Positions 453 to 22,405 are shown, counted from the first letter of the stretch. The stretch is DNA of 64,000 nucleotides from an uncultured Nitrospiraceae bacterium (GCA_964412455.1 CAYPOT010000001.1:2173-66172), one strand, 5' to 3'. Notes: a model not told the origin generated them from the sequence alone. Made by a program: numbers and translations.

Positions 453-2927
453 ATGAAAGGGAATATGATCATGAAAACAAAGAAAATGTCTGAAAAGAGC
501 ATTGTTCGGGAGGTAAAAAAGGGGTTTGAGGAGAACATCGCCGCGAAAACGGAAAAGATGAAGGTGCCGGATAATTCATTGTCGCCCGATCTGCTGCGAA
601 AGATGAACGCCTATTGGCGCGCCGCCAATTACCTGTCAATCGGCCAGATATACCTCTATGACAATCCGATGCTGAAAAAACCGTTAAAGCGGGAGCACGT
701 GAAGCCGCGACTGCTGGGCCATTTCGGTACGACGCCCGGGCTGAACCTTATTTATGTCCATCTCAACCGGATCATAAAACAGTATGACCTGAACACGATT
801 TATATCACGGGCCCTGGGCATGGCGGGCCGGGATTGGTGGCCAACACGTATCTGGAAGGCACCTACAGCGAGTTGTACCCGAACATAACCCAAGACGAAC
901 AGGGCATGAAGAAGCTCTTCACCCAGTTCTCTTTTCCCGGCGGCATCCCCAGCCACACGGCGCCCGAAACACCAGGGTCCATTCATGAAGGCGGCGAACT
1001 CGGTTATTCTTTGTCCCATGCCTACGGCGCGGCATTCGATAATCCCGACCTGCTGGTCGCCTGTGTGGTGGGCGACGGCGAGGCGGAAACCGGCCCGCTG
1101 GCCACCAGTTGGCACTCGAATAAATTTCTCAATCCCGTCATTGACGGGGCCGTGCTGCCGATCCTGCATTTGAACGGCTACAAGATCGCCGGTCCCACCG
1201 TGCTGGGCCGCATCGATCACGAGGAATTGGACCAGCTCTTCCGGGGTTACGGTTACAAGCCCTATTTCGTTGAGGGAGACGATCCCCTGAAGGTCCATCA
1301 GCGTCTGGCTGCGACACTCGATACGGTCGTCGCGGAGATCAAAGACATTCAGAATAGGGCGCGTACCAAAGGATTCAGGAAGCGTCCGCAGTGGCCGATG
1401 ATAATTTTACGCACACCGAAAGGCTGGACGTGCCCGAAGGTGGTTGATGGACTGCCCATCGAAGGCACGTTTCGCGCGCACCAGGTGCCGGTTACCGATT
1501 TCGCGACGAAACCCAAACACCTGAAAATCCTTGAACAATGGATGAAGAGTTATAAGGCTGAGGAGTTATTTGACAAGAGCGGCAGGCTCATTCCTGAACT
1601 GGCTGAACTGGCCCCCAAAGGAGAGCGGCGCATGGGAGCTAACCCCCATGCCAATGGAGGCCTTCTCCTGAAGGAGCTGAAAATGCCGGATTTCCGCGAC
1701 TACGCGGTCAAAGTACCGAAGCCCGGCGGCCTGGAAGCGGAAAGCACGCGAGTCCAGGGAGAGTTCATCCGTGATGTGCTCAAGCTCAACACCGAGTCGC
1801 GCAATTTCCGCGTTTTCAGCCCGGACGAAACCGCGTCGAACCGCTGGACCAACCTCTTCGAGATCACGGACCGGAGCTCGACCGCGGAAATCATTAAGAT
1901 CGACGACCATGTCGCGCCTGACGGCCGGGTGATGGAGATGCTGAGCGAGCACCAGTGCGAGGGCTGGCTGGAAGGCTACCTCCTGACCGGGAGGCACGGC
2001 TTTTTCTCGTGCTACGAAGCGTTCATCCACATCATCGATTCGATGTTCAACCAGCACGCAAAGTGGCTCAAGGTGGCGGGCGAGATCCCGTGGCGAAGGC
2101 CGATCGCATCCCTGAACTACCTGCTCTCGTCGCACGTGTGGCGGCAGGACCACAATGGATTCAGCCACCAGGACCCGGGGTTCATCGACCACGTGGTGAA
2201 CAAGAAGGCGGAGATCATCCGCGTGTATCTGCCTCCGGACGCCAACACCCTGCTGTCGGTCACCGACCATTGCCTCCGCAGCCGCAATTACGTCAATGTT
2301 ATCGTCGCGGGCAAACAGCCTGAACTCCAATGGCTGGATATGGATGCAGCCATCAAGCACTGCACGGCCGGGCTCGGCATCTGGGAATGGGCCAGCAACG
2401 ACAAGGGCGGCGATCCCGACGTGGTGATGGCCTGCTGCGGCGACGTGCCGACCCTGGAAACGCTTGCCGCTGTCGAGGTCCTGCGGCAGCACTTCCCGGA
2501 ACTGAAGATCCGAGTCATCAACGTGGTGGACCTGATGACGCTCCAGCCGCGGAGCGAGCATCCGCACGGGTTGAGCGATAAGGATTTTGATGTCCTCTTC
2601 ACCAGGGACAAGCCGATCATCTTCGCCTTCCACGGCTATCCCTGGCTGATCCATCGCCTTGCATATCGCCGGACCAATCATGACAATCTCCACGTACGCG
2701 GGTACAAGGAGAACGGAACGACCACCACGCCCTTCGATATGGTGGTGTTGAACGATCTCGACCGATTTCACCTGGCCGGCGACGTGATCGACCGTGTGCC
2801 CGGTCTGGGTTCAAGGGCAGCATACGCCAAACAGTTCCTTCGCGACAAACTGCTGGACCACAAGGCATACATCGAGAAGCACGGCCAGGACATGCCGGAG
2901 ATCCGCAACTGGAAGTGGAAAGGATGA
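453..2927 (+). CDS. xfp: xylulose-5-phosphate/fructose-6-phosphate phosphoketolase
   Basis: The 824-aa ORF contains phosphoketolase hallmark stretches ([35 protein letters not shown], the [25 protein letters not shown]-binding region). Length and N-terminus are typical of Xfp. Confidence 0.9.
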
Positions 2928-2985
2928 TCAGTTGTGCAGGCAGCGGTTGCGCGGACCGCCCGAGGGCGGAGAAAGATTGGGCCAG

Positions 2986-3873
2986 ATGAACATGCGAAAC
3001 CGGCTTGAACAAAAAACCCGCAAGGTCTGGGCGCTGCTCAAGCTCGCCGTTAAAAAGTTCTTTCAGATCGACGGGACACATTGGGCGGAAGCCTTCGCCT
3101 ACAATGCGTTCTTCTCGCTGTTTCCCTTGATGGTCCTGTTTGTCACGATTTTCTCGTTCTTCGTTGCCCGGGACCGGGCAGGGAAAGAGGTCATTGCCTA
3201 CATGGAAAGCTACATCCCGATCAGCGGGGAGATGCAAGCTTACATCTTTGACACCATCGGCGGCGTGATCACGGCGCGCGGGCAGGCGGGCGTTGTCGCG
3301 TTTTTCATCCTGGTCTGGGTCGCCCTCCAGTGCTTCACCACCCTCATCAGCGCGACCAACCACGCCTGGGGCGCCAAAGGGTACAACTGGTGGCGGCTGC
3401 CGATGAAAAGTCTGGCGCTGCTCGGCACCACGGCGGGCGCCGTTCTCCTGGGCATGGCGGCGCCCATGCTGGTGAAAATTGTGAACGAACGGTTTTTTCC
3501 TGTGCAGGATTTTCGTTCCTGGGTCTCTGCCGCGGGGCGCTTTGTCATCCCTTTGCTGGTGGTGTTCCTCAGCCTGAGCCTGTTTTACAAGCTGGCGCCT
3601 CGGCGGGAGACGCGGTTTGCCGAAGTGTGGGTCGCCGCCCTGTGCGCCACGGTCCTTTTACAGGTGGCCAATAGTCTCTTCGCGAGCTACCTCAAGAACT
3701 TCGCCACGCTCAACGCGGTCTATGGAGTGTTTGGCGGGATCATGGCATTGTTGCTGTGGATCTACCTTTCAGGATGCATTTTTATCTTCGGCGCCTGTCA
3801 GTGCGCCGCTCAGGCTGAAGGGCGTTCATCGCCGGCAATAACAAGCGTGGCAAGCAAAAAAAAGGAGAGTTGA
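2986..3873 (+). CDS. YihY/BrkB family inner-membrane protein
   Basis: The multi-TM protein contains 'AFAYNAFFSLFPLMVLFVTIFS', typical of the YihY/virulence-factor BrkB family. The start was moved to ATG at 2986 (MNMRN...) because the longer track ORF overlaps the xfp 3' end. Confidence 0.8.
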   Translation: MNMRNRLEQKTRKVWALLKLAVKKFFQIDGTHWAEAFAYNAFFSLFPLMVLFVTIFSFFVARDRAGKEVIAYMESYIPISGEMQAYIFDTIGGVITARGQAGVVAFFILVWVALQCFTTLISATNHAWGAKGYNWWRLPMKSLALLGTTAGAVLLGMAAPMLVKIVNERFFPVQDFRSWVSAAGRFVIPLLVVFLSLSLFYKLAPRRETRFAEVWVAALCATVLLQVANSLFASYLKNFATLNAVYGVFGGIMALLLWIYLSGCIFIFGACQCAAQAEGRSSPAITSVASKKKES

Positions 3874-3876
3874 ACC

Positions 3877-5938
<2,062 letters not shown>

Positions 5939-5946
<8 letters not shown>

Positions 5947-6277
5947 AAAACCGGAAATCAAGAGCGGCAAGGACCGGACTGCGTTCAGCCGGGAGGTCGG
6001 CGCGAAGGCGGCGCGCAAGCTCAAGGCGCAGCGTAACGTCACGCAGGGAGTCTGGTTTGGCCTGGGCATGATGGGCCTGATCGGATGGTCGGTGGTGGTG
6101 CCGACGCTGCTCGGCGCAGCGCTTGGTCTCTGGCTGGACAAGCGCTATCCGGGAAGCCATTCCTGGACGCTTATGCTGCTGGTTGCCGGCCTTGCGATCG
6201 GGTGCTGGAACGCGTGGCATTGGGTGTCAAAGCAAGACAAGGAAATGCAGGAGGAACAGGAGGATAACGATGAATGA
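5939..6277 (+). CDS. atpQ: N-ATPase AtpQ (AtpI/AtpZ-like small membrane subunit)
   Basis: The 112-aa protein has two TM helices with the 'WFGLGMMGLIGWSVVVPTLLGAALGLWLDKRY' motif characteristic of the ATP-synthase protein I family. Its position after atpC matches the atpDCQRBEFAG order. Confidence 0.65.
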
Positions 6278-6584
6278 AAATCTGATGCTGGTGTCGGCGT
6301 GGGTGGCGGGTGTTGTGCTCGGCGCGATATTCTTCGGCGGCCTTTGGTGGACGGTGCGGAAGGGGGTTTCGTCCCAACAGCCCGCGCTGTGGTTCTTCGG
6401 CAGCTTGCTGCTGCGGATGAGCATTGCACTGGCCGGTTTTTATTTTGTCTCCGGCGGTCATTGGGGGCGGCTGCTGCTGTGTCTGCTTGGATTTGCTATC
6501 GCGCGTTTCATCGTGACGCGGCTTGCCGGCCCGCCAATCGAACGACTTAACTCCCCGGAAAAGGAGGCCGGTCATGCGTCTTAG
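6270..6584 (+). CDS. atpR: N-ATPase AtpR subunit
   Basis: The 104-aa two-TM protein has the conserved intramembrane Arg (GGLWWTVRKG). Its start ATG at 6270 overlaps the atpQ stop. The position fits the N-ATPase operon order. Confidence 0.6.
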   Translation: MNENLMLVSAWVAGVVLGAIFFGGLWWTVRKGVSSQQPALWFFGSLLLRMSIALAGFYFVSGGHWGRLLLCLLGFAIARFIVTRLAGPPIERLNSPEKEAGHAS

Positions 6585-7269
6585 TCCCGATGAGATCATC
6601 TTCTGGCAACAGGGGCCTTTCAAGCTCAACGCCACCATTGTGTTCACCTGGGGACTGATGCTCGTGCTGGCCGTCGGTTCAAAACTCATCACGCGAAAAC
6701 TTTCCACGGGTCTGGCGCGTTCCCACTGGCAGAACCTTCTGGAGATCGTCGTCACGGGCATCGAGAAACAAATTGAAGAGGTAGGCTTGAGTCAGCCGAA
6801 TAAATATCTCGGCTTTCTGGGCACGCTCTTCCTGTTCGTCGCCGCAGCCAGCATCTCCACCGTCGTTCCCGGATACGAGCCGCCGACGGGCTCGCTCTCG
6901 ACCACGGTTGCGCTCGCGCTGTGCGTGTTTGTGGCCGTGCCGTTCTTCGGCATCGAGGAACAAGGGGTGGGAAACTACCTTAAATCCTATGTGAAGCCGA
7001 CGTTCATCATGCTGCCCTTTAACATCATCAGCGAACTTTCGCGGACACTAGCGTTGGCCGTCCGATTGTTCGGCAACATGATGAGCGGGGCGATGATCAT
7101 CGCTATCCTGGTCACTATTACGCCCTTCATCTTCCCGGTCATCATGACGCTGCTTGGCCTGCTCACCGGCATGGTGCAGGCCTACATCTTCTTTATCCTG
7201 GCCACGGTTTACATCGCGGCAGCCACGCGCGTCCGTAAGCCAAAGCCCGGACCCGAGGTAAAACTGTGA
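6574..7269 (+). CDS. atpB: F0 a subunit
   Basis: A multi-TM protein carrying the stator Arg in 'LALAVRLFGNMMSGAMI'. Its start overlaps the atpR 3' end. Confidence 0.85.
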   Translation: MRLSPDEIIFWQQGPFKLNATIVFTWGLMLVLAVGSKLITRKLSTGLARSHWQNLLEIVVTGIEKQIEEVGLSQPNKYLGFLGTLFLFVAAASISTVVPGYEPPTGSLSTTVALALCVFVAVPFFGIEEQGVGNYLKSYVKPTFIMLPFNIISELSRTLALAVRLFGNMMSGAMIIAILVTITPFIFPVIMTLLGLLTGMVQAYIFFILATVYIAAATRVRKPKPGPEVKL

Positions 7270-7303
7270 AGCATAATCTACAGCAACAACAAAAGGAGAC
7301 ACT

Positions 7304-7585
7304 ATGGATAGCATGACTATTATCGCGGTAGCATCAATTGTCACCGCCGGCATTACCACCGGCTTCGGCACCATGGCCCCGGCGTTGGGCGAGGGGAGGG
7401 CGGTCGCGACGGCGCTCTCTTCTCTGGCCCAGCAGCCTGATGCCTCAGCCACCATCACCCGGACCTTGTTCGTGGGCCTGGCGATGATCGAGTCCACGGC
7501 CATTTACTGCTTCGTGGTCTCGATGATCCTCATCTTCGCCAACCCGTTCTGGAACCACGTCATTGCCCAGGGCGCGGGAAAGTAA
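7304..7585 (+). CDS. atpE: F0 c subunit (c-ring rotor) with a Na+-binding ligand set
   Basis: The 93-aa hairpin protein has Q in helix 1 and E-S-T-x-x-Y in helix 2 (LAMIESTAIY). This matches the Na+-coordinating signature of Na+ F-ATPase and N-ATPase c subunits. Confidence 0.85.
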   Translation: MDSMTIIAVASIVTAGITTGFGTMAPALGEGRAVATALSSLAQQPDASATITRTLFVGLAMIESTAIYCFVVSMILIFANPFWNHVIAQGAGK

Positions 7586-7589
7586 GCCT

Positions 7590-8408
7590 ATGTTGATCGA
7601 TTGGTTCACCATCGTTGCGCAGGCACTCAACTTTCTCATCCTGGTGTGGTTGTTGAAGCGCTTCCTGTACAAACCCATCCTCCACGCCATCGACGAGCGG
7701 GAGAAGAGGATCGCCGCGGAACTCGCGAACGCCGACAAGAATAAGGCCGAAGCCCAAAAGGAGCGCGACGAGTTTCAGCATAAGAACGAGGAGTTCGACC
7801 GGGAACGTGCCGCGCTGTTGAGCAAGGCGACGGACGAGGCGCAGGACGAACGTCAGCGGCTCCTCGATGAAGCGCGGAAGGCCGCCGCGGCCTTGGCTGC
7901 CAAACGGATGGAAACGCTGAGAAAGAGCGAACAGAACTTATATCAGGAAATCAGCCGCCGGACACAACAGGAAGTATTCGCCATCGCGCGAAAGGCGTTG
8001 ACGGATCTCGCCGGGAAGAGTCTGGAAGAACGCCTGGGCGAGGTGTTCACCCGCCGCTTGCGGGAGATGGACAGCCAGGCGAAAGCAAGCCTCGCCGAGG
8101 CCCTTAAGAAAGCGTCGGAACCCGCGCTCGTGCGCAGCGCTTTTGACCTGCCCGCGGAGCAACGCGCGGCGATACAAAAAGCGCTCAACGAAACGTTCTC
8201 GGCCAAGATCCATATCCGGTTCGAAACCGCGCCGGACCTGATCAGCGGCATTGAACTAAGCACGAATGGACAAAAGGTGGCGTGGAGCATCGCGGATTAC
8301 CTGTCGTCACTGGAAGAAGGCGTCACTGAACTTCTGAAAGAGAAGGACAAACCTGAAACCAAAGCCGGGCCTGAACCTGAAGAACTGAAACCCGAAACGG
8401 AGAACTAA
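7590..8408 (+). CDS. atpF: F0 b subunit (long form)
   Basis: An N-terminal single TM ([21 protein letters not shown]) is followed by a long Lys/Glu/Ala-rich coiled coil. The start ATG at 7590 overlaps the atpE stop region. Confidence 0.75.
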
Positions 8409-10078
8409 TGAACAGTGCGCCGGAAAGCCTCCAGAACATTTTCGACAGCGCGTTTGACGGCATAAGCCGGGTGCGGGAAGCATTCACGCCGCAATTGTTG
8501 CCACGAGAGGTGGGGACGATCACCAGTGTCGCCACCGGCATCGCGAAGGTGTCGGGTCTTCCCAACGTGGGCTTTGATGAATTGGTGACGTTTCCGGGCG
8601 AGGTGCCCGGCATTGCGTTCAACGTGGACGCGGAAGAGATCGGCGTCGTTCTGCTCGGCGAATACTGGCATCTCCACGCGGGAGATGAGGTACGTCGCAC
8701 GGGCCGGGTCATGGACGTGGCTGTGGGCGAGGGATTGCTGGGGCGCGTCATCGACCCGCTCGGCCGGCCGCTCGATGGCGACGGGCCGGTGGCCGCAGGC
8801 CCGCGCCTGCCGATCGAACGCCCCGCCCCACCCATCATGGACCGCGCGCCCGTAACAGCGCCTCTCCAGACCGGCATCAAAGTCATCGATGCGCTCATTC
8901 CCGTCGGGCGCGGTCAGCGCGAGTTGATCCTCGGCGACCGCCAGACGGGCAAAACCGCCATTGCGATCGACACCATCCTCAACCAGCGGGGCCGGAATGT
9001 CCTGTGCGTTTATTGCGCCATCGGTCAGCGCGCGTCCGCCGTGGCGAAGGCCGTGGCAACCTTGCGGGAAAAGGGGGCGATGGATTATACCGTCCTCGTC
9101 GTGACCGAGGGCAACGACCCGCCGGGTCTCGCGTACATCGCTCCGTACGCCGCGACCAGCATCGCGGAGTATTTCATGGAAGCGGGCCGGGATGTGCTGA
9201 TCGTTTACGACGACCTCACCCATCACGCTCGCGCCTACCGCGAACTCTCTCTCTTGCTGCGCCGTCCGCCCGGCCGCGAAGCGTTTCCCGGTGACATATT
9301 TTATATCCACTCGAGGCTGCTGGAACGAGCCACGCACTTGCGTAAGGAACTCGGCGGCGGCTCCCTCACCGCGCTGCCCATTATCGAAACCGAAGCGCAG
9401 AACATTTCCGCCTATATCCCGACCAACTTGATCTCCATCACGGATGGGCAGATCTACCTCTCGCCGACGCTGTTCGAATTGGGCGTGCTGCCCGCGGTCG
9501 ATGTCGGTAAATCCGTTTCGCGCGTGGGCGGCAAGGCGCAGCGGTCGGCCTACCGCGCGGTGGCGGGAGACCTCAAGCTCGCCTACGCGCAGTTTGAGGA
9601 ACTCGAGACCTTTGCCCGGTTCGGCGCACGCCTGGATGAAGACACCCGCAGGATCATCGAGCATGGACAACGGATCCGCGCCTGTCTCAAACAGCAGGAA
9701 TCCGCCGCCGTGTCCGTGCCCGCGCAGATCGCCATCCTGCTGGCGTTGACCGCGGAACTCTTCGACAACGTGCCGCTTGACCGGATGGCGGACGCCGAGC
9801 GCGCCGTGCATGAGGCGGCGGCGGATATCCCGGACGAAGTACGCGGGCGCCTGGATAGCTCCGAAAAATTGAGCGACGAGGATCGTGAAACGATCATCCA
9901 GATCGCCCGCAAAGCGCTCGAGGCGTTCCTGGCCGAACCGGACTCCAGGTCCGAGCCGGAACAAGGGCCCGAAGAGCGGCACAAACCTGAAGCGAAAGCC
10001 GGGTTCAAATCCGGAACAACGCCGGATGAGACCAGGGCTGATCCCCAAACCAATGCTTCACCAAAGGAGAAGTCATGA
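8408..10078 (+). CDS. atpA: F1 alpha subunit
   Basis: Contains the Walker A motif GDRQTGKT and an F1-alpha signature throughout ([14 protein letters not shown]; [41 protein letters not shown]). It has an approximately 50-aa charged C-terminal extension. Confidence 0.93.
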
Positions 10079-11229
10079 TAAATTTGCTTACCATCGAATC
10101 GCCGGCAGAGTTGGCAGCGGCTCTTCAGCCGCCGTGTCTCTCGCTGTACCAGCCGACCCATCGGCGCAGTCCCGAGAATCAGCAGGACCCGATCCGGTTT
10201 CGCAATCTGGTAAAGGAGCTGGAGTCATCACTTCGGCAGAAGTATCCGAAAGTCGAGACCCGGCTCCTGTTGGAACCGTTTGAAGCCCTCGCCCGCGATC
10301 ATGTCTTCTGGACCCACACGCTGGATGGCCTGGCCGTGCTGGGCGGGCCGGGGCTGTTTCGCGTGTTCCGGCTGCAACGGCCGGTCGCCGAATTGGTCGT
10401 CGTGGCCGACAGCTTTCACACCAAGCCCCTGCGACGCTTTCTGCAATCAGTCGATCGCTATCAGGTCCTGGGATTAAGCCTTCGCCGGATCCAGCTTTTC
10501 GAGGGGAACCGCGACGCGCTCGACGAGATCGATCCGGCGCCGGGCGTCCCGCGGACGATGACCGAGGCGCTGGGCGATGAACTGACCGATTCGCATTCGA
10601 CCGTCGCCTCCTACGGCGGCGTCGGCGTGGACAGCATGGCCATGCACCACGGCCACGGCGGGAAGAAGGATCAGGCAAACAACGACGCGGAGCGGTTTTT
10701 TCGCGCCATCGACCGCGCGGTACTCGAGCGCCATTCCCGGCCCTCGGGCCTGCCGCTGATCCTGGCGGCGCTGCCGGAGCACCATCATCTTTTCCGTCAA
10801 GTCAGCCATAACCCGTTTCTGATAGCTGATGGCCTCACGATCAATCCCGATACCCTGCCGATCGATGAACTTCGGGAACGCGCCTGGCAAGTCGTCGAGC
10901 CGCAGTATCAAGCGCAAATGGCGACACTGGCCGACGAGTTCGCAGTTGCGAAATCCAAGGGGCTTGGCAGTGACGACCTGGCGGAGGTTGCCCGGGAGGC
11001 GGCCACCGGGCGGGTAGCCACGCTGCTGATCGAGGCCGACCGCCAGATAGCCGGCCGGCTCGACGACGAGACGGGTCGGATCGAACACGCTGATCTGAGC
11101 CACTTGCAGGTCGATGACCTGCTCGACGATCTGGGCGAGTTGGTAGTGAAGATGGGCGGCCGGGTCCTGGTCATTCCGGCCGAGCGGATGCCGGGACGGA
11201 CGGGACTGGCCGCCAGCTACCGGTATTAA
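10075..11229 (+). CDS. eRF1/Pelota-superfamily protein (bacterial aeRF1-like, 'baeRF') with a modified GGQ loop; inserted in the ATPase operon
   Basis: The 384-aa protein begins with ATGA overlapping the atpA stop. The central loop '[19 protein letters not shown]' resembles eukaryotic eRF1 'KKHGRGGQSALRF'. The C-terminus '...[11 protein letters not shown]' resembles eRF1 '...GIGGILRYRVD'. The three-segment length distribution is compatible with eRF1 domains 1-3. This is motif-level recognition from memory and has not been checked by a profile search. Confidence 0.5.
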
Positions 11230-11251
11230 ACAATCACAAAAGGAAAGCGCC

Positions 11252-11629
11252 ATGCAAATCCAGGTAAATACCGACCGTAACATCAAAGAGCACGAGGCGC
11301 CGGCCGCTCAGGTAAGCGGCGCAGTGGAAAGCGCCCTGAGTCGATTCAGCGATCACATAACGCGAGTGGAGGTCCACCTGGGCGACGAGAACAGCGACAA
11401 GAAGGCCGGCCATGACAGCATGCGTTGCATGATGGAAGCCCGCCTCGAGGGCCGCCGACCCGTCGCGGTCACGCACCAGGCAGCGACCCTGGACCTGGCC
11501 GTCAACGGCGCCGCGGACAAGCTGACCGGATTGATCGAGCGCACGCTCGGGCGGCTGCGAGAGCAACAGAGTGACCGAACAGACCCTGATCCGTCCGCAC
11601 TTGAACCGGAACTCGAGGAGGATTCATGA
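11252..11629 (+). CDS. short HPF/RaiA (YfiA) family ribosome hibernation/ribosome-associated inhibitor protein
   Basis: The 125-aa protein has an HPF-like N-terminus 'MQIQVNTDRNI', a 'RVEVHLGDEN' strand, and an 'ATLDLAVNGAADKLTGLIER' C-terminal helix typical of the short HPF family. Its TGA overlaps the atpG ATG as ATGA. Confidence 0.65.
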   Translation: MQIQVNTDRNIKEHEAPAAQVSGAVESALSRFSDHITRVEVHLGDENSDKKAGHDSMRCMMEARLEGRRPVAVTHQAATLDLAVNGAADKLTGLIERTLGRLREQQSDRTDPDPSALEPELEEDS

Positions 11630-12519
11630 GCGACACCACGGCGAGTCTGCGCCGAAAGATCAACGGAGCAGGGGACCTCCAATCCGTTGTCCGTACGATG
11701 AAGGCCGTGGCCGCATCGAGCATCGGACAATACGAGCAATCGGTGCGCGCGTTAGGGGACTACTATCGCACGGTGGAACTGGGGTTGGGCGTCTGTTTCC
11801 GGGGCGCCGGTTCTGCGGCATTGATGACTGGAGAGGCAAAACAAATGGATGCGGGTGCGATCGGCGCGGTCGTGTTCGGTTCGGACCAGGGACTGGTGGG
11901 CCAGTTCAACGATGTGGTGGCCGATTATGCTGTCAAGACGCTGGCGGCTCTGCCGGGGGAGCCCCGGGTCTGGGCCGTAGGCGAGCGCGTTCATGCGCGC
12001 CTGGAGGACGCGGGCCTGCCGTCGATCGGACTCTACGCCGTGCCGAACTCCGTCAAGGCCATCACCCCGCTCGTCGGGCGGATTCTCATGGAGAGCGAGG
12101 CGCGACGCGGCCGGGAGGAGATCGCGGAACTCCACCTCTTCTACAACCGCCCCGAGAACGGGGCGGTCTATGCGCCCGTCAGTCAGCGACTGCTGCCGCT
12201 GGACGAAAGCTGGCGGCGCAGGCTGGCCAAGCTTCCCTGGCCGACGGGAAACCTGCCCGAGGTCATGAGCGGCGGCACCGTGACCTTGCGGGCGCTCATC
12301 CGCGAATATCTTTTCGTCTCGCTCTTTCGGGCGTGCGCCGAATCCCTCGCGAGCGAGAACGCGAGCCGCCTGGCGGCGATGCAACGCGCCGACAAAAATA
12401 TCGTCGAATTGCTGGAGGATCTCAACGGAAAATTCCATCGTTTGCGCCAGAGCGGCATCGACGAGGAACTGTTCGACGTCATTTCCGGCTTCGAAGCGCT
12501 GAGCGCGGAGAAGAAATAA
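11626..12519 (+). CDS. atpG: F1 gamma subunit
   Basis: The 297-aa protein has the gamma-typical N-terminus (LRRKINGAGDLQSVVRTMKAVAASSIGQYEQS) and C-terminal helix. It is the last gene of the N-ATPase order. Confidence 0.85.
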   Translation: MSDTTASLRRKINGAGDLQSVVRTMKAVAASSIGQYEQSVRALGDYYRTVELGLGVCFRGAGSAALMTGEAKQMDAGAIGAVVFGSDQGLVGQFNDVVADYAVKTLAALPGEPRVWAVGERVHARLEDAGLPSIGLYAVPNSVKAITPLVGRILMESEARRGREEIAELHLFYNRPENGAVYAPVSQRLLPLDESWRRRLAKLPWPTGNLPEVMSGGTVTLRALIREYLFVSLFRACAESLASENASRLAAMQRADKNIVELLEDLNGKFHRLRQSGIDEELFDVISGFEALSAEKK

Positions 12520-12619
12520 TGTGGATTGCCTGAGCGCATGACCGTGCGTTTCGTTGATACAGTACAGTAAGGAAACCAATACGCCACGAAGGAGGACGAG
12601 GAAGATGAAAAGACCACTG

Positions 12620-12797
12620 GTGTTTTAGCGGTTATGTTTGTTTTGAGTACCAGGCATTTGCCCAGATGGGCGCCGGTCAAGGTGGTGGCATGATGGACCA
12701 TGGCTGGGGGTGGGGCATGGGCTAGGGAGGGGGCCTCGTGATCATTTTCGTGATCCTCGTTGTTGCGGGTGTGGTGTATATGATGAAGCGAAAGTAG
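12620..12797 (+). pseudogene. TAG-interrupted, frameshifted paralog of the small Met/His/Trp/Gly-rich membrane peptide gene at 18058-18297
   Basis: It is about 80% nucleotide-identical to 18121-18297. It is readable as MGAGQGGGMMDHGWGWGMG-TAG-GGGLVIIFVILVVAGVVYMMKRK. The region encoding the N-terminal signal peptide is frameshifted relative to the intact copy. Confidence 0.5.
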
Positions 12798-13050
12798 AAT
12801 AAGATCTGTATCGTGTTCGGGCTATCTAGCGCCCTTGCTTCGATCAGGCAGGACAAGGTTATGGCAATCCGGCTATCGGGATGGGTGCTGGAGCAAAGAG
12901 AGAGGCCGGAAGGTAGGTGAATTCTGTGGAGTGGGCGCATACCCCGCAGCTTGCTGCAGGGAGCTTCAATAGCGAATTGCGAGAAAAGTTTTTTGCAAGA
13001 AAGGTCGCATCGGCGGTGCAAACAATAAAAATAATACAGGGCGGAATACA

Positions 13051-13278
13051 ATGAAAAAGATAGTAGCAATAAGCCTGGTAGTCCTGATGTTGACGGCAAC
13101 CTATTGCTTTGCCCAGACGGACAGCGGCATGAAGGGGCCAGCAAACGGGGGAGAGGGATCATCCGTGTGTGAAGATGGACGAAGGGATGATGAAACAAAA
13201 TGCTCCATTCCACGGCTGACAGCCGGAGGGATGGACGACGCTTTTTTTATTGCGAGAGCCCTTAATGTGATAAAATAA
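13051..13278 (+). CDS. hypothetical small secreted protein (signal peptide plus a Cys-containing 50-aa mature part)
   Basis: The N-terminus MKKIVAISLVVLMLTATYCFAQT resembles a Sec signal peptide. It lies in a lower-GC intergenic region. No homolog was recognised. Confidence 0.3.
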   Translation: MKKIVAISLVVLMLTATYCFAQTDSGMKGPANGGEGSSVCEDGRRDDETKCSIPRLTAGGMDDAFFIARALNVIK

Positions 13279-13462
13279 CGCATCTTCAATTGTATAGCGA
13301 AAGATACGACGGTCTCATAAGAAGTCCAGAACAGCTTTCTGTACGTCATTCCCGTGGAAACGGGGATCCAGTCTTGTTTAAAGTATTTTGGGGCACTGGA
13401 TACCCGCTTGCGCGGGTATGACGACTTTGGTGGGCGCATTATCAATGCGAGCGGGAGGGAAG

Positions 13463-16400
13463 ATGGCCAAGAAGCGATCACCGGCAGGGCCTCCGTCGAA
13501 AAAGGTCAAAAAAGCGTTGCCTCTCAAAAAGGGCCCGATCGCCGGCAAAGGCGGAAAGAACACCACGCCGGCAAAAGCGTCTTCCAAACGCACGGCCAGC
13601 CCGGCAATAGAACGTCAGCCTGATGAACAAGCCCGATCGGACAGGAACGCGTTCCTCGTTGTCGGGGTCGGCGCCTCAGCGGGCGGGCTGGAAGCGTTCA
13701 CGATGCTGTTGAAGAACATTCCGCCGCATACGGGCATGGCGTTCGTGCTCGTGCAGCACCTTGCCCCCGCCAAAGACAGTATTTTGACCGATCTCCTTTC
13801 GAAAGCGACCTCCCTGCCGGTGCATGAGGTACGGGAAGGCATGGCCATAGAACCTGACCATGTCTACGTCATCCCGCCCAATGCGTTCATGACCATTTTT
13901 CACGGCGTGCTCCGGCTTTCTCCGCGCGCCGAATCTCCCGTCCAGCACATGCCTATTGATTCGTTTTTCCGGTCGCTTGCCGAGGACCAGGGACAGCATG
14001 CCGTCGGCATCATCCTTTCCGGGACCGGCTCCGACGGTTCTCTGGGCATCCGGGCAATAAAGGCCGAGGGAGGGATCGTCCTGGCGCAGGACGGATCGGC
14101 AAAATACGACGGCATGCCCAAAAGCGCCGTTGCGACCGGCTCGGTCGATTATATCCTGCCCCCGGAAAAGATGGCCGCCGAGCTGGCGCGGATCAGCCGC
14201 CATCCCTTCCTGACCGTCCACCCGGCCGTGAAGACCGGCCCGCTGCTTCAGGCAGGGGAGAACGATCTGAGCAAGATATTCATGCGGATCAGGACGGCCA
14301 CGGGCGTTGATTTCACCTATTACAAACAGGCAACGGTGCTGCGCAGGATCAACCGGCGCATGCTCCTGCACAAGATCGATAAATTGGAACACTACGTCCG
14401 TTATCTGCAGGAGAACCCCAAGGAAGCCGGGGTCCTGTACCAGGACATCCTCATCAACGTCACCTCTTTTTTCCGGGACCCGGTGACGTTCACCGCGCTG
14501 AAGAACGTCGTGTTCCCACGATTCATTGAAAAAAGACCATCTGACACCCCGCTCCGGGTATGGGTCCCGGGATGCTCGACCGGAGAGGAGGCCTACTCGA
14601 TCGCTATGTGTTTCGCGGAATTCTGCGAAGAGCGGGGCGTTTCCCATCCGATCCAGTTCTTCGCGTCCGACATCGACGAAGCGGCGATCGACAAGGCCCG
14701 CCAGGGCCTTTACCCGGACACCATCGCGCAGGACGTCTCGCCGGAACGGCTCCGGCGTTTTTTTGTAAAGACGGAGCAAGGATACCATGTCAGCAAACCG
14801 ATCAGGGAACAGTGCGTATTTGCCCGTCAGAACCTGGTCAAAGACCCGCCGTTCTCAAGGATGGACCTGATCAGCTGCAGGAACCTGATGATCTACTTCG
14901 GCCCGGTGCTGCAGAAAAAGGTGCTCCCGATCCTGCACTATGCCCTCAATCCTTCGGGATACCTCATGCTCGGGAGGTCCGAGTCCATCGGCGAGTTTGC
15001 GAACCTGTTTTCCCTGGTCGACAAGAACAGCAGGATCTATTCCAAGAAGACCGCATTGCAGGGACTGCGCCTCGACGCGGATCTGGGGCCTGTCCGGGAA
15101 AGGGCCGACATGAAAAAGAAGAAAGATGATCATGCCGCAGGCGGGACCGACATCCAGAAGGAAGCGGACAGCATCATCCTGAGCAGATACAGCCCCCCGG
15201 GTCTGGTCATTAACGAGGACATGGATATCCTGCAATTCCGCGGGAACATCAGCCCCTATCTGAGGCCCCAGCCCGGCAAAGCCAGCCTCAATCTCATGAA
15301 GATGGCGGGTGAAAGCCTTGCCATGGAACTGCGGGTCCTCATCCGCCAGGCCGCCGGAAAGGACGCTTCCGCCAGAAAAGAAGGGATCAAGGTCAGGCAC
15401 AACGGCATGGTCACGGACGTGACCATTGAGGTGTTCGCCTTCAAGCCCCGTGATTCCCAGGAGCGCCACTTTCTGGTCGTTATTGAGGATGCTGCCCCGC
15501 CGGCGGCGCGGGAGCCGAAAAAACCGGGGAAAGCCGCTGCAACGACAAAGGGCAGGCCCCCGGAGGACCAGGTGACCCCGCTGGCGCGCGAGCTTGCCGC
15601 TACCCAACAGCACCTGAAGACGATCATTGCGGAGCATGAGGCGTCCACCGAGGAGCTCAAGGCGCTCAATGAGGAAGTGCAGTCCAGCAACGAAGAGCTG
15701 CAGAGCATCAACGAGGAACTTGAAACGTCGAAGGAAGAGCTTCAATCCACCAATGAAGAACTGAGCACCGTGAACGACGAGCTCCAGAACCGCAACGAAG
15801 AGATAATGCAGAGCAACAACGACCTCGTGAATGTCCTGTCCGGCGTCGATATCCCGATCCTGCTGATCGGGAACAAGCTGCAGATCAGGCGGTTCAATGC
15901 GGCCGCGGGCAAGGCGCTGAACCTTATCGCCACCGATATCGGGCGGCCGATCTCCGACATCAGGCCCAATATCAACGTCCCGGACTTTGACAAAATGATC
16001 CACGAGGTGGTCGACACGTTGACGATAAAGACGCAGGAGGTCCGTGACACGCGGGGCCGCTGGTACACCCTGGCGATACGGCCGTACAAGACAATAGACA
16101 ACAGGATCGACGGCGCGATCGTGACCTTCGAGGACATCCACGACCTGAAGCAGGGCATGACGCGCATCCAGGAAGCCCGTGAGTATGCCGAAGCGATCGT
16201 CGAGACCGTACGGGAACACCTTATCGTGCTGAACAAGGACCTGCGCGTGGTCAGCGCGAACCAGTCGTACTATAAGAACTTCGCGGTAACGCCGGAGGCG
16301 ATCAAGGACAAGTATATATACGATATCCAGGGCGGCCTCTGGAACATGCCGAAACTCCGGGAACTGCTCGATGAGATCATCCGGGAGAACAAAGCGTTCA

Positions 16401-16774
16401 ACGATTTCGAGTTCAATTACGAAGCACCCGGCGCCGGCCGCAAGATGATGCTGCTGAACGCGCGAAGGGTCGCCCGGGAGGAGCAGTTGATCCTGCTTGC
16501 CGTCGAAGACATTACCGCGCGGCGAATGGCGGAAGAGGAACGGGACAGGATCGATCTGGATCGAAAGGAAGCGCTGTCCAAGATCAAGAGACTGGCCGGA
16601 TTGCTTCCGATCTGCGCTTCGTGCAAGAAAATACGCGACGATGAAGGCTATTGGAAGCAGATCGAAGCCTATATCAGCGAGCATTCCGAGGCGGAATTCA
16701 CCCACAGCCTCTGCCCGGATTGCGCGGTGAAAGCATATGCGGATCTCGATGAGTTGAAAAAGAACAAAAAATAA
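13463..16774 (+). CDS. CheB methylesterase - CheR methyltransferase - PAS - coiled coil - PAS hybrid signalling protein with a C-terminal Cys/His zinc-ribbon-like tail (no histidine kinase)
   Basis: CheB catalytic region (LVVGVGASAGGLEAF...GTGSDGSLG). CheR SAM-binding region (VWVPGCSTGEEAYSIAMC). A heptad coiled coil (EELKALNEEVQSSNEELQSINEELETSKEELQSTNEELSTVNDELQNRNEEI). PAS-like segments. A terminal 'LPICASCKKIRDDEGYWKQIEAYISEHSEAEFTHSLCPDCAVK'. The start was set to ATG 13463, which follows GGGAGGGA. Confidence 0.85.
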   Translation: MAKKRSPAGPPSKKVKKALPLKKGPIAGKGGKNTTPAKASSKRTASPAIERQPDEQARSDRNAFLVVGVGASAGGLEAFTMLLKNIPPHTGMAFVLVQHLAPAKDSILTDLLSKATSLPVHEVREGMAIEPDHVYVIPPNAFMTIFHGVLRLSPRAESPVQHMPIDSFFRSLAEDQGQHAVGIILSGTGSDGSLGIRAIKAEGGIVLAQDGSAKYDGMPKSAVATGSVDYILPPEKMAAELARISRHPFLTVHPAVKTGPLLQAGENDLSKIFMRIRTATGVDFTYYKQATVLRRINRRMLLHKIDKLEHYVRYLQENPKEAGVLYQDILINVTSFFRDPVTFTALKNVVFPRFIEKRPSDTPLRVWVPGCSTGEEAYSIAMCFAEFCEERGVSHPIQFFASDIDEAAIDKARQGLYPDTIAQDVSPERLRRFFVKTEQGYHVSKPIREQCVFARQNLVKDPPFSRMDLISCRNLMIYFGPVLQKKVLPILHYALNPSGYLMLGRSESIGEFANLFSLVDKNSRIYSKKTALQGLRLDADLGPVRERADMKKKKDDHAAGGTDIQKEADSIILSRYSPPGLVINEDMDILQFRGNISPYLRPQPGKASLNLMKMAGESLAMELRVLIRQAAGKDASARKEGIKVRHNGMVTDVTIEVFAFKPRDSQERHFLVVIEDAAPPAAREPKKPGKAAATTKGRPPEDQVTPLARELAATQQHLKTIIAEHEASTEELKALNEEVQSSNEELQSINEELETSKEELQSTNEELSTVNDELQNRNEEIMQSNNDLVNVLSGVDIPILLIGNKLQIRRFNAAAGKALNLIATDIGRPISDIRPNINVPDFDKMIHEVVDTLTIKTQEVRDTRGRWYTLAIRPYKTIDNRIDGAIVTFEDIHDLKQGMTRIQEAREYAEAIVETVREHLIVLNKDLRVVSANQSYYKNFAVTPEAIKDKYIYDIQGGLWNMPKLRELLDEIIRENKAFNDFEFNYEAPGAGRKMMLLNARRVAREEQLILLAVEDITARRMAEEERDRIDLDRKEALSKIKRLAGLLPICASCKKIRDDEGYWKQIEAYISEHSEAEFTHSLCPDCAVKAYADLDELKKNKK

Positions 16775-17095: not shown

Positions 17096-17953
17096 ATGAA
17101 GAAACATCAAAAAATATACATGCACTCCAGCAGGTACGTTGGTTTCCTCACCAAAGTCCTGCGTGATTTCAAGCGCAATCAGGGCCTCCTGCTGGCCGGA
17201 GCCATCGCCTATTATACCCTGCTGTCCATTGTGCCCCTGTCGATCCTGGCCCTCATTGCGCTGTCCCGTTTTGTAGAGGAGGCCCAGTTATTTCACACGT
17301 TGTCGACCTATATAGAAATGATGATACCGGGGTACGCGGCTGTACTGACCGAACAAGTGCGGGTATTTCTCGAGCGCGGCAGTTCGGTCGGGAGCTTTGT
17401 ATTGCTGGCCATGCTCTTTTTCAGTTCCATAGCCTTTACCGTGCTCGAAAGCGCCATGTCCGTGATCTTTTTTCATCGTGTCAAAGCACGGCGCCGTCAT
17501 TTTCTCCTGTCCGCCATCATCCCGTACGCATATATCTTTCTATTCGGCCTGGGCATCCTGCTGGTGTCGTTCATAGCGGGCGCCATAGAGACGCATAGCG
17601 ACAGACAACTGGTCATATTTGGATGGGGTATCAGCCTCGAGGGCCCTTCCTTCTTTGCGCTTTATTCGATCGGGATATTGGGAGAGATATTGCTGCTGAC
17701 CTCCTTCTATCTGGTCATGCCCATAGTGCGCATTACGTTCCGGCACGCTCTGATGGGCGGGACGCTCGCGACGGTCTTATGGGAGCTCACCCGCCGCGTG
17801 CTGGTCTGGTATTATTCGGTCCTCTCCTCGGTGACGTTGATCTACGGTTCTTTTGCCACGTCGGTGGTGGCCCTGCTCAGTATAGAAGCGATAGCGGTCA
17901 TTATCTTGCTGGGGGCCCAGGTCATCGCAGAACTTGAGCGCATAGACACTTAG
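17096..17953 (+). CDS. YihY/BrkB family inner-membrane protein (second paralog)
   Basis: The 285-aa multi-TM protein has 'LLLAGAIAYYTLLSIVPLSILALIAL' and the overall YihY architecture. Confidence 0.8.
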   Translation: MKKHQKIYMHSSRYVGFLTKVLRDFKRNQGLLLAGAIAYYTLLSIVPLSILALIALSRFVEEAQLFHTLSTYIEMMIPGYAAVLTEQVRVFLERGSSVGSFVLLAMLFFSSIAFTVLESAMSVIFFHRVKARRRHFLLSAIIPYAYIFLFGLGILLVSFIAGAIETHSDRQLVIFGWGISLEGPSFFALYSIGILGEILLLTSFYLVMPIVRITFRHALMGGTLATVLWELTRRVLVWYYSVLSSVTLIYGSFATSVVALLSIEAIAVIILLGAQVIAELERIDT

Positions 17954-21469: not shown

Positions 21470-22405
21470 TTATGCTGATTCAACCCGGTTCCTTCCGTTC
21501 TTTTTTGCTTCGTACATGGCGAGGTCAGCGGCATGGATCAACTTGTCCTGGGTGTCGATGGAAGAGTTTGGGATGCCGGCGACGCCGATGCTGACAGTTG
21601 CATTTTTGGTCGCTGTTCTGGTGAATTCGCAGCTGGCGACTGCTTTTCGCACTCGCTCAGCCGCCAGCAGGGCCTTTTCCATGTTCGTGTTGGGACACAG
21701 GACCATAAACTCTTCTCCGCCCCAGCGGGCGGGCGTATCGACCTCGCGGATGGTGGTCTGGATGATCCGGGCGATCTCCTTGAGCACTGCATCGCCCTCC
21801 TGGTGCCCGTGGGAATCGTTGATCAACTTGAAATGGTCTATGTCGATCATCATGCACGTGAGCGGGAGCTGATACCGCGTGGCACGCTTGAACTCGTTGG
21901 CGAAGATGGTCTCGAACCGCCTGCGATTGTAGATCCCCGTCAGCGGGTCCATGATCGCGAGACTTTCTACCCGGGTGAGCATGTCCTCCAACTGGCGGTT
22001 CTTTGTTTTCAGATCATCCTGCTGCTGCTTGGTCCTCAGGCGGGCAAAGATGCGGACGTTGAGCTCCGACTCATCGAAGGGCTTGGGAAGGTAATCGTCG
22101 GCGCCGGACTCAAGCCCTGATATCTTGTCGGACATGGCCCCTTTTTCGGTCAGCATGATGATGGGGGTGTCGCGGGTGGTCTGGTCAAGCTTGAGCCAGC
22201 GGCAGACCTCGCTGCCATCCATGTCAGGCAGAATGCGATCCAGGAGAATGATGTCCACCTTGCTCGTCTTGGCGGCCTTGATGGCGGACATGCCGTCCTC
22301 GACGATCGCGACCTGATAGCCGTTCTTCGTGAGGTAGTCCCGGATGATAGCTGCCTGGGCCTTGTTGTCTTCAACCAGCAGTATGTTGGCTTTTGCCACG
22401 ATCAT
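21470..22405 (-). CDS. response regulator-diguanylate cyclase (REC-GGDEF)
   Basis: The receiver has 'ILLVEDNKAQ...DIILLDRILPDMDGSEV'. The GGDEF domain has 'RWGGEEF', the RxxD I-site region and the 'IDIDHFKLINDSHGH' motif. Confidence 0.9.
   Translation of the reverse strand: MIVAKANILLVEDNKAQAAIIRDYLTKNGYQVAIVEDGMSAIKAAKTSKVDIILLDRILPDMDGSEVCRWLKLDQTTRDTPIIMLTEKGAMSDKISGLESGADDYLPKPFDESELNVRIFARLRTKQQQDDLKTKNRQLEDMLTRVESLAIMDPLTGIYNRRRFETIFANEFKRATRYQLPLTCMMIDIDHFKLINDSHGHQEGDAVLKEIARIIQTTIREVDTPARWGGEEFMVLCPNTNMEKALLAAERVRKAVASCEFTRTATKNATVSIGVAGIPNSSIDTQDKLIHAADLAMYEAKKNGRNRVESA

Follow-up and report, generated by a model that had tools for sequence, protein, structure and literature searches.

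The window analysed here, i.e., a stretch of 64,000 nt from an uncultured Nitrospiraceae bacterium, carries on its plus strand a complete operon for an N-type ATP-driven ion-pumping ATPase (N-ATPase), in which two non-ATPase genes stand between atpA and atpG. We refer to them as X, an open reading frame (ORF) of 384 aa, and Y, an ORF of 125 aa; coordinates given without a locus handle are positions in the window. By sequence, X is a homologue of the Balon family of ribosome hibernation factors and Y a short HPF/RaiA protein. We consider it fairly probable that X-Y constitutes a two-gene ribosome-hibernation cassette that was inserted into the N-ATPase operon and is made together with an ATP-hydrolysing cation pump. 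This reading builds on the identities of both proteins, the operon arrangement, its recurrence in other genomes, and a history of insertion and transplantation that is recorded at the gene junctions.

Arrangement and identity of the inserted genes

ORF calls in combination with profile matches yield the gene order atpD-C-Q-R-B-E-F-A-[X-Y]-G, i.e., the strictly contiguous atpDCQRBEFAG order described for N-ATPases (Dibrova, Galperin and Mulkidjanian 2010, PMC2881411) is broken by X and Y and otherwise kept. The first-pass annotation had placed two interrupting genes between atpA and atpG, and both were recovered, X at 10075-11229 and Y at 11252-11629. Both start/stop overlaps that it had reported are present in the sequence as well. 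At junction 1 (TCATGA, 10072-10078), the atpA stop overlaps the X start (ATGA, 10075-10078); at junction 2 (TCATGA, 11623-11629), the Y stop overlaps the atpG start (ATGA, 11626-11629). Between X and Y lie 22 nt that include a ribosome-binding site (AAGGAAAG). The GC content across atpA-X-Y-atpG is uniform (0.61-0.65). A consensus scan of 7323-13500 returned zero plus-strand promoter-like sites, and plus-strand terminator-like hairpins from atpA on were found only inside the coding sequences of atpA (8986, 9150) and atpG (12286), with counts no higher than in shuffled sequence. Since both ORFs match protein families strongly and the arrangement recurs in other genomes, it does not represent a chance ORF pattern.

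X matches the Pfam family PF18845 (baeRF_family3) over all of its profile positions (1-168 of 168) with 180.3 bits compared to a cutoff of 31.5 (E 5.3e-53), and Balon itself falls into the same family. The similarity to Balon (8RD8_B) extends over the full length, i.e., residues 18-383 against 13-368, with E 1.3e-18 for the single sequence and E 2.6e-42 when the family profile is used. The AlphaFold (AF2) model of X reaches pLDDT 90.5 and pTM 0.82. It rests on a diverse alignment of 87 sequences; a model from a shallow alignment (31 sequences, 79-100% identity) gave pLDDT 44 and was discarded. Searched with Foldseek against the PDB, the predicted structure places three Balon-ribosome structures on top (E ~5e-24, TM 0.60-0.64), followed by mycobacterial Balons, archaeal aRF1, and then eRF1 and Pelota/Dom34. 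The model is assigned a probability of 1.00 for its similarity to Balon, aRF1 (4AF1, E 1e-12), eRF1 (5LZU, E 2e-9), and Pelota (3WXM, E 1e-7). Profile, match to a solved structure, and predicted fold thus agree with the earlier assignment of X to the eRF1/Dom34 (baeRF) superfamily and sharpen it to the Balon family; an unrelated fold is not what AlphaFold and Foldseek return, but an eRF1-type fold of three domains. Based on these comparisons, X is a homologue of Balon-family (baeRF family 3, aeRF1-fold) ribosome hibernation factors.

The residues common to X and Balon are spread over all three domains. In the N-terminal domain, the block THRxxPxNxQDPI of X aligns well with Balon's THREHPANDQDPI. 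X has an S-P pair where Balon has H-P, with P33 being invariant and position 32 varying; the Balon paper gives no residue numbers for this feature. Two short strands predicted at residues 326-329 and 336-338, in a region aligned to Balon without gaps, are a candidate counterpart of the beta-hairpin inserted in Balon's C-terminal domain, which contacts EF-Tu. The stop-codon motif string NIKS is absent from the X sequence.

The segment of X equivalent to the GGQ loop spans residues ~189-209 (10639-10701). The strings HGHGGKKDQ...AERF and C-terminal ...SYRY, quoted in the first-pass annotation, are found in the translation. That annotation went on to regard GG-KKD-Q as a replacement of the GGQ motif, which we rule out, because the window's Gln (Q200) is a Glu in the family consensus. 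Among 31 close homologues, H192, G195, G196, R207, and F208 are invariant and Q200 is not conserved (consensus HGHGGKKDE); for the wider family, i.e., 87 homologues down to 33% identity, the consensus reads HGHGxxxDE. The loop forms a 9-residue insertion relative to Balon, and residues 175-193, which lie upstream of the loop and overlap its start, are predicted to be disordered (pLDDT <50). The lack of both a conserved GGQ Gln and NIKS fits a non-catalytic A-site binder as for Balon, whose solved homologues leave the peptidyl-transferase centre inert, and argues against a release or rescue enzyme. Of the 'stalling, rescue or hibernation' module proposed beforehand, hibernation is therefore favoured.

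Y passes the S30AE profile PF02482 narrowly (26.2 bits vs. a cutoff of 23.7) and stays below the cutoff of TIGR00741, the yfiA/HPF equivalog (18.9 vs. 40.9 bits). Its match to 7M4Z_v, a 116-aa protein bound in the A. baumannii ribosome, is strong (E 1e-17 for the single sequence, E 4e-29 with a profile). A Y profile from 20 homologues further reaches 8RD8_D, i.e., the RaiA beside Balon (E 4e-4), chloroplast PSRP1/pY (E ~1e-3), and also E. coli HPF. Conservation in Y stops near residue 104, beyond which a variable tail remains, such that the C-terminal dimerisation domain of long HPFs is missing from Y. Like short HPF/RaiA (YfiA)/pY proteins, Y thus consists of a single S30AE domain of ~100 aa; it differs from them in being marginal to the generic Pfam model. 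The earlier call of a short HPF/RaiA is borne out by the profile and by the ribosome-bound homologues, and by sequence Y is a member of a divergent, Balon-associated subfamily; its mode of action may be that of HPF (100S dimers) or of RaiA (70S).

The pairing of X and Y as such is already published. Burroughs and Aravind (2019, PMC6514570) defined the baeRF families, reported their persistent operonic link to HPF, and predicted a non-catalytic shutdown of translation. Helena-Bueno et al. (2024, PMC10901736) showed Balon in the A site together with RaiA and EF-Tu, found that homologues inhibit translation in vitro, named raiA as the commonest gene neighbour of Balon genes, and cited the hypoxia induction of Rv2629/Msmeg1130. 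With Balon (Psychrobacter urativorans AOC03_06830; 8RD8/8RDV/8RDW; Msmeg1130, Rv2629), X shares the Pfam family, full-length homology, the three-domain aeRF1-like fold, the absence of NIKS and of the GGQ glutamine, and the location beside a short HPF/RaiA gene. In contrast to the P. urativorans protein, the tip loop of X's middle domain is nine residues longer and carries the HGHGGKKD motif. Furthermore, the X clade is unusually conserved (61-86% identity across phyla) and is located in, or derives from, an N-ATPase operon, a context that the Balon papers do not report. Judged by their sequences, X and Y are new, divergent members of known families.

Recurrence and history of the insertion

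All counts in the following refer to the best 80 X-related loci (61-86% identity; handles L001 etc.) among 293 species-level genomes with an X relative, i.e., the loci were sampled via X; they stem from metagenome bins or draft genomes. In public protein data, X finds ~7,900 representative clusters (50% identity level) at E<=1e-3. The labels of the 80 loci cover Acidobacteriota, Planctomycetota, Nitrospirota, Desulfobacterota, Actinomycetota, Chloroflexota, Verrucomicrobiota, and several proteobacterial classes.

The order atpA-X-Y-atpG, or the part of it that is visible on short contigs, is found in 14/80 loci, and two more (L002, L014) show atpA-X-atpG without Y. These 16 operon-embedded loci are labelled Acidobacteriota, Planctomycetota, Nitrospirota, Desulfobacterota, Deferrisomatales, and Gammaproteobacteria, which amounts to at least five phyla. 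In two further loci (L011, L068), X-Y is located directly upstream of atpD and the atpA-atpG junction is canonical. Canonical N-ATPase operons lack the pair, i.e., X and Y are not common N-ATPase subunits, as the first-pass annotation had considered as an alternative to its own proposal. An HPF/RaiA gene adjoins X in 57 of the 80 loci, with a spacer of 23-33 nt where measured.

The two junctions behave differently among the operon loci. Y stop and atpG start overlap or are within 1 nt of being contiguous in 12 of 14 measured cases, whereas the distance between atpA and X ranges from an overlap up to ~200 nt. Thus, the co-translation that had been described as forced by the overlaps holds for Y and atpG in most operon copies, while the coupling of X to atpA is a derived state of some copies only. 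The operon arrangement is kept down to ~72% X identity. As described for N-ATPases, the operon moves laterally as one unit, with N-ATPase subunits that are 70-94% identical across phyla. X is as constrained as gamma, and its distances correlate with those of the ATPase subunits, with the strongest correlation for atpG (r 0.83, Mantel p ~2e-4).

On plasmids, no close X homologue was found (best 33% identity). None of the 16 plasmids with an N-type gamma carries an X homologue, such that plasmid carriage does not account for the spread. Acaryochloris plasmids showed no X homologue either, and on the closest of the 16 plasmids, from Legionella anisa, atpA and atpG are 9 nt apart.

Further insertions were observed in the operons. 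In L025 (4512-6169), a gene of the MscS family lies between Y and atpG; in L026 (3932-8001), ~4 kb separate atpA from X, and in L002 (2521-3465) ~0.9 kb. The atpA-atpG interval appears to be a hotspot of gene gain. In L048 (8001-9536), the X frame has no stop before the end of Y; this may reflect a fusion of X with Y, a frameshift from sequencing, or an artefact of the script.

How X-Y entered the operon can be followed in copies with a longer spacer behind atpA. In L003, L006, and L021 (Nitrospirota) as well as in L001 (Acidobacteriota), this spacer opens with the canonical ATGA of atpA stop and atpG start, which is followed by 31-32 atpG codons. In the three Nitrospirota loci, a direct repeat of 110-116 nt (79-86% identical) brackets X-Y with its copies 1,754-1,759 nt apart (L003 7766-7881 and 9525-9640; L021 7770-7879 and 9529-9638; L006 7768-7878 and 9522-9632); the upstream atpG 5' fragment of L001 is decayed (7796-7888). 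The repeat begins ~21 nt before the ATG, such that ~21 nt at the end of Y align with the atpA 3' end and the terminal codons of the two genes are homologous. From this sequence comparison, the repeat around X-Y is the scar of the insertion, which was deleted in the window.

Downstream (3') of the atpG remnant, a conserved AT-rich leader (ttgttaagcgattattgag...GTGACTGAATCAC...AGGAGG) is observed, comprising an AGGAGG ribosome-binding site and a GTGA-N5-TCAC palindrome. It precedes the X start by ~30-90 nt in L001, L004, L007, L009, L010, L018, L036, and others, and it is common to operon-embedded and free-standing cassettes. In the window and in L049, both the atpG remnant and the leader are gone, the palindrome is not present in the window, and X starts at the old junction ATG. 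This loss is why both window junctions read TCATGA. It is also reflected in the N-terminus of the window's X, which reads MINLL... compared to the family consensus MTQKxTLL.... In canonical operons (L068) and scar-bearing loci, it is atpG or its remnant that starts at the ATGA of junction 1. From these alignments we infer that junction 1 is the ancestral coupling site of atpA stop and atpG start, now used by X.

The same history can be read from cassettes outside of operons. The flanks of L009, L020, and L051 are free of N-ATPase genes, yet a 26-30-codon remnant of the atpG 5' end is found exactly at the Y stop. Such remnants are located at L009 9553-9642, L051 1926-2015, L020 1982-2059, and L023 4943-5020, and indicate at the sequence level that these cassettes descend from an operon-embedded state. 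In L031, a type IIIA P-type H+-ATPase (TIGR01647, 1,067 bits; 5299-8004) precedes X (8001-9155) and Y (9185-9556). The last 93 nt of the P-type ATPase gene are 80% identical to the 3' end of the window's atpA, and the gene is joined to X by the same kind of ATGA stop/start overlap. Behind Y, an ORF (9553-10263) overlaps the Y stop and begins with MSNTIQPLRR, similar to MSDTTASLRR of atpG. The atpA tail together with both overlaps shows that a coupled cassette of the window's type was transplanted behind a different ATP-driven cation pump. Overall, a P-type H+-ATPase is coupled or adjacent to X-Y in 14 loci. Of the 43 loci whose flanks reach at least 3 kb on both sides, 9 carry an N-ATPase, 12 a P-type H+-ATPase, 1 a remnant only, and 21 neither.

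Functional reading and alternatives

Other genes recur within a few kb of X-Y, namely those for DUF2254 (19 loci), P-type ATPase (14), PPK2 (11), phosphoketolase (9 other loci), GH15/trehalase-like proteins (6), MscS-BON (6), M50-CBS protease (5), HAD phosphatase (5), GH130 (5), and acetate kinase (4). By eye, we further identified transaldolase, class I aldolase, glucose-6-phosphate isomerase, and VIT1. This gene content suggests functions in substrate-level ATP supply, polyphosphate use, the mobilisation of storage glycans and compatible solutes, and the control of ions and turgor, i.e., it resembles the toolkit of a non-respiring, non-growing cell and suggests an energy-starvation island. 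The increase of N-ATPase subunits at low O2 in Nitrospira marina (PMC8115632) fits such an energy-limitation reading.

Given these observations, the hibernation cassette could work as follows. X would serve as an A-site factor of the Balon type that has the aeRF1 fold and lacks a catalytic Gln, and Y as a short HPF/RaiA in the decoding region of the 30S subunit. In an ancestor, the cassette was inserted ~31 codons into atpG of an N-ATPase operon, thereby duplicating ~110 nt of the atpA/atpG junction. In the lineage of the window, scar and cassette leader were deleted later, with the outcome that X took over the old atpG start codon, which overlaps the atpA stop, while atpG uses the start codon of the duplicated junction, which overlaps the Y stop. 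The genes would be read as one transcript, with X translationally coupled to atpA and atpG to Y, such that expression of the operon would provide hibernation factors and the ATP-hydrolysing cation pump together. The neighbouring genes point to expression under energy or oxygen limitation. Under such conditions, translation, the main ATP/GTP sink, would be shut down with the ribosomes being preserved, and the remaining ATP, from phosphoketolase/acetate kinase or polyphosphate, would be spent on energising the membrane and on the extrusion and balance of ions.

Several points weigh against this reading. We infer the binding of ribosomes by the X-Y clade, the co-transcription, and the physiological logic from the analyses above. 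In the structural alignment, X and Balon share only ~22% identity, and X scores below the NCBIfam equivalog cutoff for Balon (NF052287, AOC03_06830 family; 179.5 vs. 330 bits), which is why we treat it as a divergent member of the Balon family. The link to pumps is facultative, since about half of the 43 well-flanked X loci have no ion pump nearby. Tight coupling of X to atpA is the exception, as the leader is kept upstream of X in most copies, where its sequence may serve as the cassette's own promoter or operator. The stoichiometry is awkward, too: hibernation factors would be needed per ribosome, while gamma occurs once per ATPase. In N. marina, the gene of a 125-aa S30AE protein (IMG gene 2597410715), which is ~2.5-fold up at low O2 (PMC8115632, supplementary file 4), lies between msrB and phosphoglucomutase (pgm) and hence outside of the N-ATPase operon; with these neighbours, the protein is ruled out as evidence for the fused arrangement. 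Finally, the taxonomic labels of the loci come from metagenome bins and may include binning errors.

Among the alternatives, a passive hitchhiker fares best and is plausible, although we regard it as rather unlikely. X-Y would have landed in atpG through an accident of duplicative recombination, harmless to its host, and would spread with a mobile operon to which it has no functional tie. The scar indeed indicates one recombination event, and the transfer of whole N-ATPase operons is documented (PMC2881411). Pumps are also missing around half of the X loci, and canonical N-ATPases work without the insert. On the other hand, an accident does not explain well why the arrangement persists to ~72% X identity under strong constraint and why the junction was streamlined into a start/stop overlap in several copies. 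Nor does it account for a linkage that outlasts the repositioning upstream of atpD (L011, L068), or for an unrelated P-type H+-ATPase being coupled likewise or adjacent in 14 loci.

Much less probable is that X is an active release or rescue factor, i.e., a peptidyl-tRNA hydrolase or a Dom34-like splitter for ribosomes that stall under ion or energy stress. The invariant HGHGG of the close clade does resemble HGRGGQ of eRF1, and Burroughs and Aravind allowed for catalysis in some baeRF families (PMC6514570). However, no Gln is conserved after the GG, the structures of Balon homologues keep the peptidyl-transferase centre inert, X is paired with HPF/RaiA in 57/80 loci, and its closest structures are those of Balon and not of eRF1 or Pelota.

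We attach even less weight to a co-option of X and/or Y as accessory or regulatory subunits of the N-ATPase that work off the ribosome, e.g., as an inhibitor of wasteful hydrolysis. A place between the alpha and gamma genes with translational coupling would be typical for subunits of a complex, and the evolution of X parallels that of gamma. Near-identical cassettes (up to 83% identity) without nearby ATPase, the loss of Y from the operon copies L002 and L014, the Balon-shared residues in all three X domains, and the match of Y to ribosome-bound HPF/RaiA argue against it. Least credible is a conflict system (anti-phage or toxin-response) that shuts down translation from an incidental location, since the lateral mobility of the cassette and the attribution of baeRF diversification to biological conflicts (PMC6514570) are opposed by neighbours that are metabolic and related to ion homeostasis rather than defence, by the chromosomal housekeeping context of the window (dnaE and tRNAs), and by PADLOC models, which match neither X nor Y.

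The hibernation cassette co-made with a pump, which we thus prefer, can be extended tentatively. N-ATPase (or, interchangeably, P-type H+-ATPase), Balon, and HPF could form the core of a laterally mobile 'dormancy module', where the physiological role of N-ATPases in these lineages, long unclear, would be to energise the membrane by means of ATP during respiratory arrest, with hibernation being hard-wired to it such that the ATP saved from translation feeds the pump. We consider this possible but doubtful. In its stronger version, the hibernation factors would sense or answer the ionic or energetic signal to which the pump responds, or would act at the membrane beside it.

A comparable set of genes belongs to the mycobacterial DosR dormancy regulon, in which hypoxia induces Rv2629 (Balon) together with Rv0079 (HPF-like) and the P-type ATPase CtpF. 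As around X-Y, a Balon homologue is combined there with an HPF-like factor and an ATP-driven cation pump, with co-induction under respiratory limitation in mycobacteria. In contrast, the mycobacterial genes are scattered and co-regulated by a transcription factor, while the window has its genes in one operon with start/stop overlaps, and its pump is a rotary N-type ATPase (P-type H+-ATPases are found in other loci).

That N-ATPase operons with such inserts are undescribed, as the first-pass annotation supposed, agrees with our full-text literature search, in which N-ATPase combined with hibernation or Balon returned no paper linking hibernation factors to N-ATPase operons. PMC6514570, PMC10901736, and a 2025 preprint on the evolution of hibernation factors do not mention ATPase or ATP synthase contexts. 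From the N-ATPase side, Dibrova et al. (PMC2881411) note two inserted, uncharacterised genes in Cyanothece and a single inserted gene in Acaryochloris; elsewhere, this literature speaks generically of 'hypothetical intervening ORFs', and ProAD defines N-ATPases by an uninterrupted gene order. What appears to be new is therefore the integration of X-Y into the N-ATPase operon, its evolutionary history, and the echo of this integration with P-type H+-ATPases.

Ribosome hibernation and the energisation of the membrane are the two needs that a non-growing bacterium has to meet for its survival, and they have been studied as separate regulons. Here, their fusion is kept, streamlined, and re-created with a second ATP-driven pump across several phyla, mostly in uncultured soil and sediment bacteria. 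Should the coupling be functional, it would offer a testable clue to the purpose of N-ATPases, whose role has been called 'largely unexplored' (PMC5376962), a new and very widespread context for Balon-type factors, and a compact genetic marker of dormancy capacity in metagenomes. The insertion scar also provides a clear worked example of an operon that gains foreign genes and subsequently tidies its junctions.

Operon genes and surroundings in the window

The ATPase genes of the window, all on the plus strand, correspond to the N-ATPase operon of Dibrova et al. in having nine genes in canonical order, AtpR and AtpQ, no delta gene, a b subunit with a delta-like region, and a c subunit with Glu and ESTxxY; they differ in the interruption between atpA and atpG. 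The beta, alpha, gamma, and c subunits all exceed the curated cutoffs for the 'alternate F1F0 ATPase'. The operon starts with atpD (beta, 4095-5567; TIGR03305, 890.6 bits vs. 752) and atpC (epsilon, 5542-5946; PF02823, E 7.5e-17), for which an alternative start at ATG 5557 is possible. They are followed by atpQ (gene 1, 5939-6277; PF09527, E 4e-19; TIGR02230, 143.6 bits), the N-ATPase hallmark gene atpR (6270-6584; PF12966, E 1.8e-31; TIGR03165, 110 bits), atpB (a subunit, 6574-7269; PF00119, E 3.9e-42), and atpE (c subunit, 7304-7585; TIGR03322, 165 bits vs. 131). The b subunit gene atpF (7590-8408) combines PF00430 and PF00213 (OSCP) in one ORF of 272 aa, i.e., it has a fused delta-like C-terminus, and no separate atpH ORF was found within 4095-12519. 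The alpha gene atpA (8408-10078; TIGR03324, 934 bits vs. 750) encodes a ~50-aa low-complexity C-terminal tail, and the gamma gene atpG (11626-12519; TIGR03323, 430.9 bits vs. 282) completes the operon behind X (PF18845) and Y (PF02482). The products of atpA, atpD, and atpF end in tails rich in Lys, Pro, and Glu that have low complexity and lie outside of the family models (9930-10075, 5480-5567, and 8330-8408, respectively).

The translated c subunit shows a Glu in helix 1 (LGEGRA; ...LGEGRAV...LAMIESTAIYCFV...) and the ESTxxY motif (IESTAIY). This set of ligands is taken as a sign of Na+ binding (Dibrova et al. 2010, PMC2881411). However, the Burkholderia enzyme, the sole N-ATPase that has been characterised biochemically, is H+-coupled, such that Na+ is a candidate ion for the window's N-ATPase.

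Directly 5' of the operon, on the same strand and with almost no intergenic space, lie xfp and a gene of the BrkB/YihY family, such that the transcription unit may extend beyond the atp genes. The phosphoketolase gene xfp is located at 453-2927 (Pfam XFP_N/XFP/XFP_C, E 1e-182; NCBIfam phosphoketolase, 1514 bits). The BrkB/YihY-family membrane protein is called at 2794-3873 (PF03631, E 3e-45) with the domain starting from residue 93; translation probably starts at an internal ATG near 2986 instead. Another BrkB/YihY paralogue is located at 17096-17953. Between the BrkB/YihY stop and the atpD start, an ORF of 73 aa (3877-4098, plus strand) overlaps atpD by an ATGA at 4095-4098. It matches no Pfam family and is not conserved in the other loci. 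Its N-terminus is weakly similar to that of phosphoketolase (E 0.016); by sequence, it is probably a decayed 5' fragment of xfp and not a gene.

Within the window, the Rfam scan reported two tRNAs only and no riboswitch or leader RNA. The stretch 3' of atpG (12520-13390) has a low GC content (0.49-0.53), a high GC skew, and no recognisable gene; its longest ORF (12722-13213, minus strand) has no Pfam match. Downstream of the operon follows a CheB-CheR fusion of 1,128 aa with PAS domains (13388-16774, plus strand). Together with a response-regulator diguanylate cyclase at 21470-22405 (minus strand), it represents signalling genes that could be regulators.

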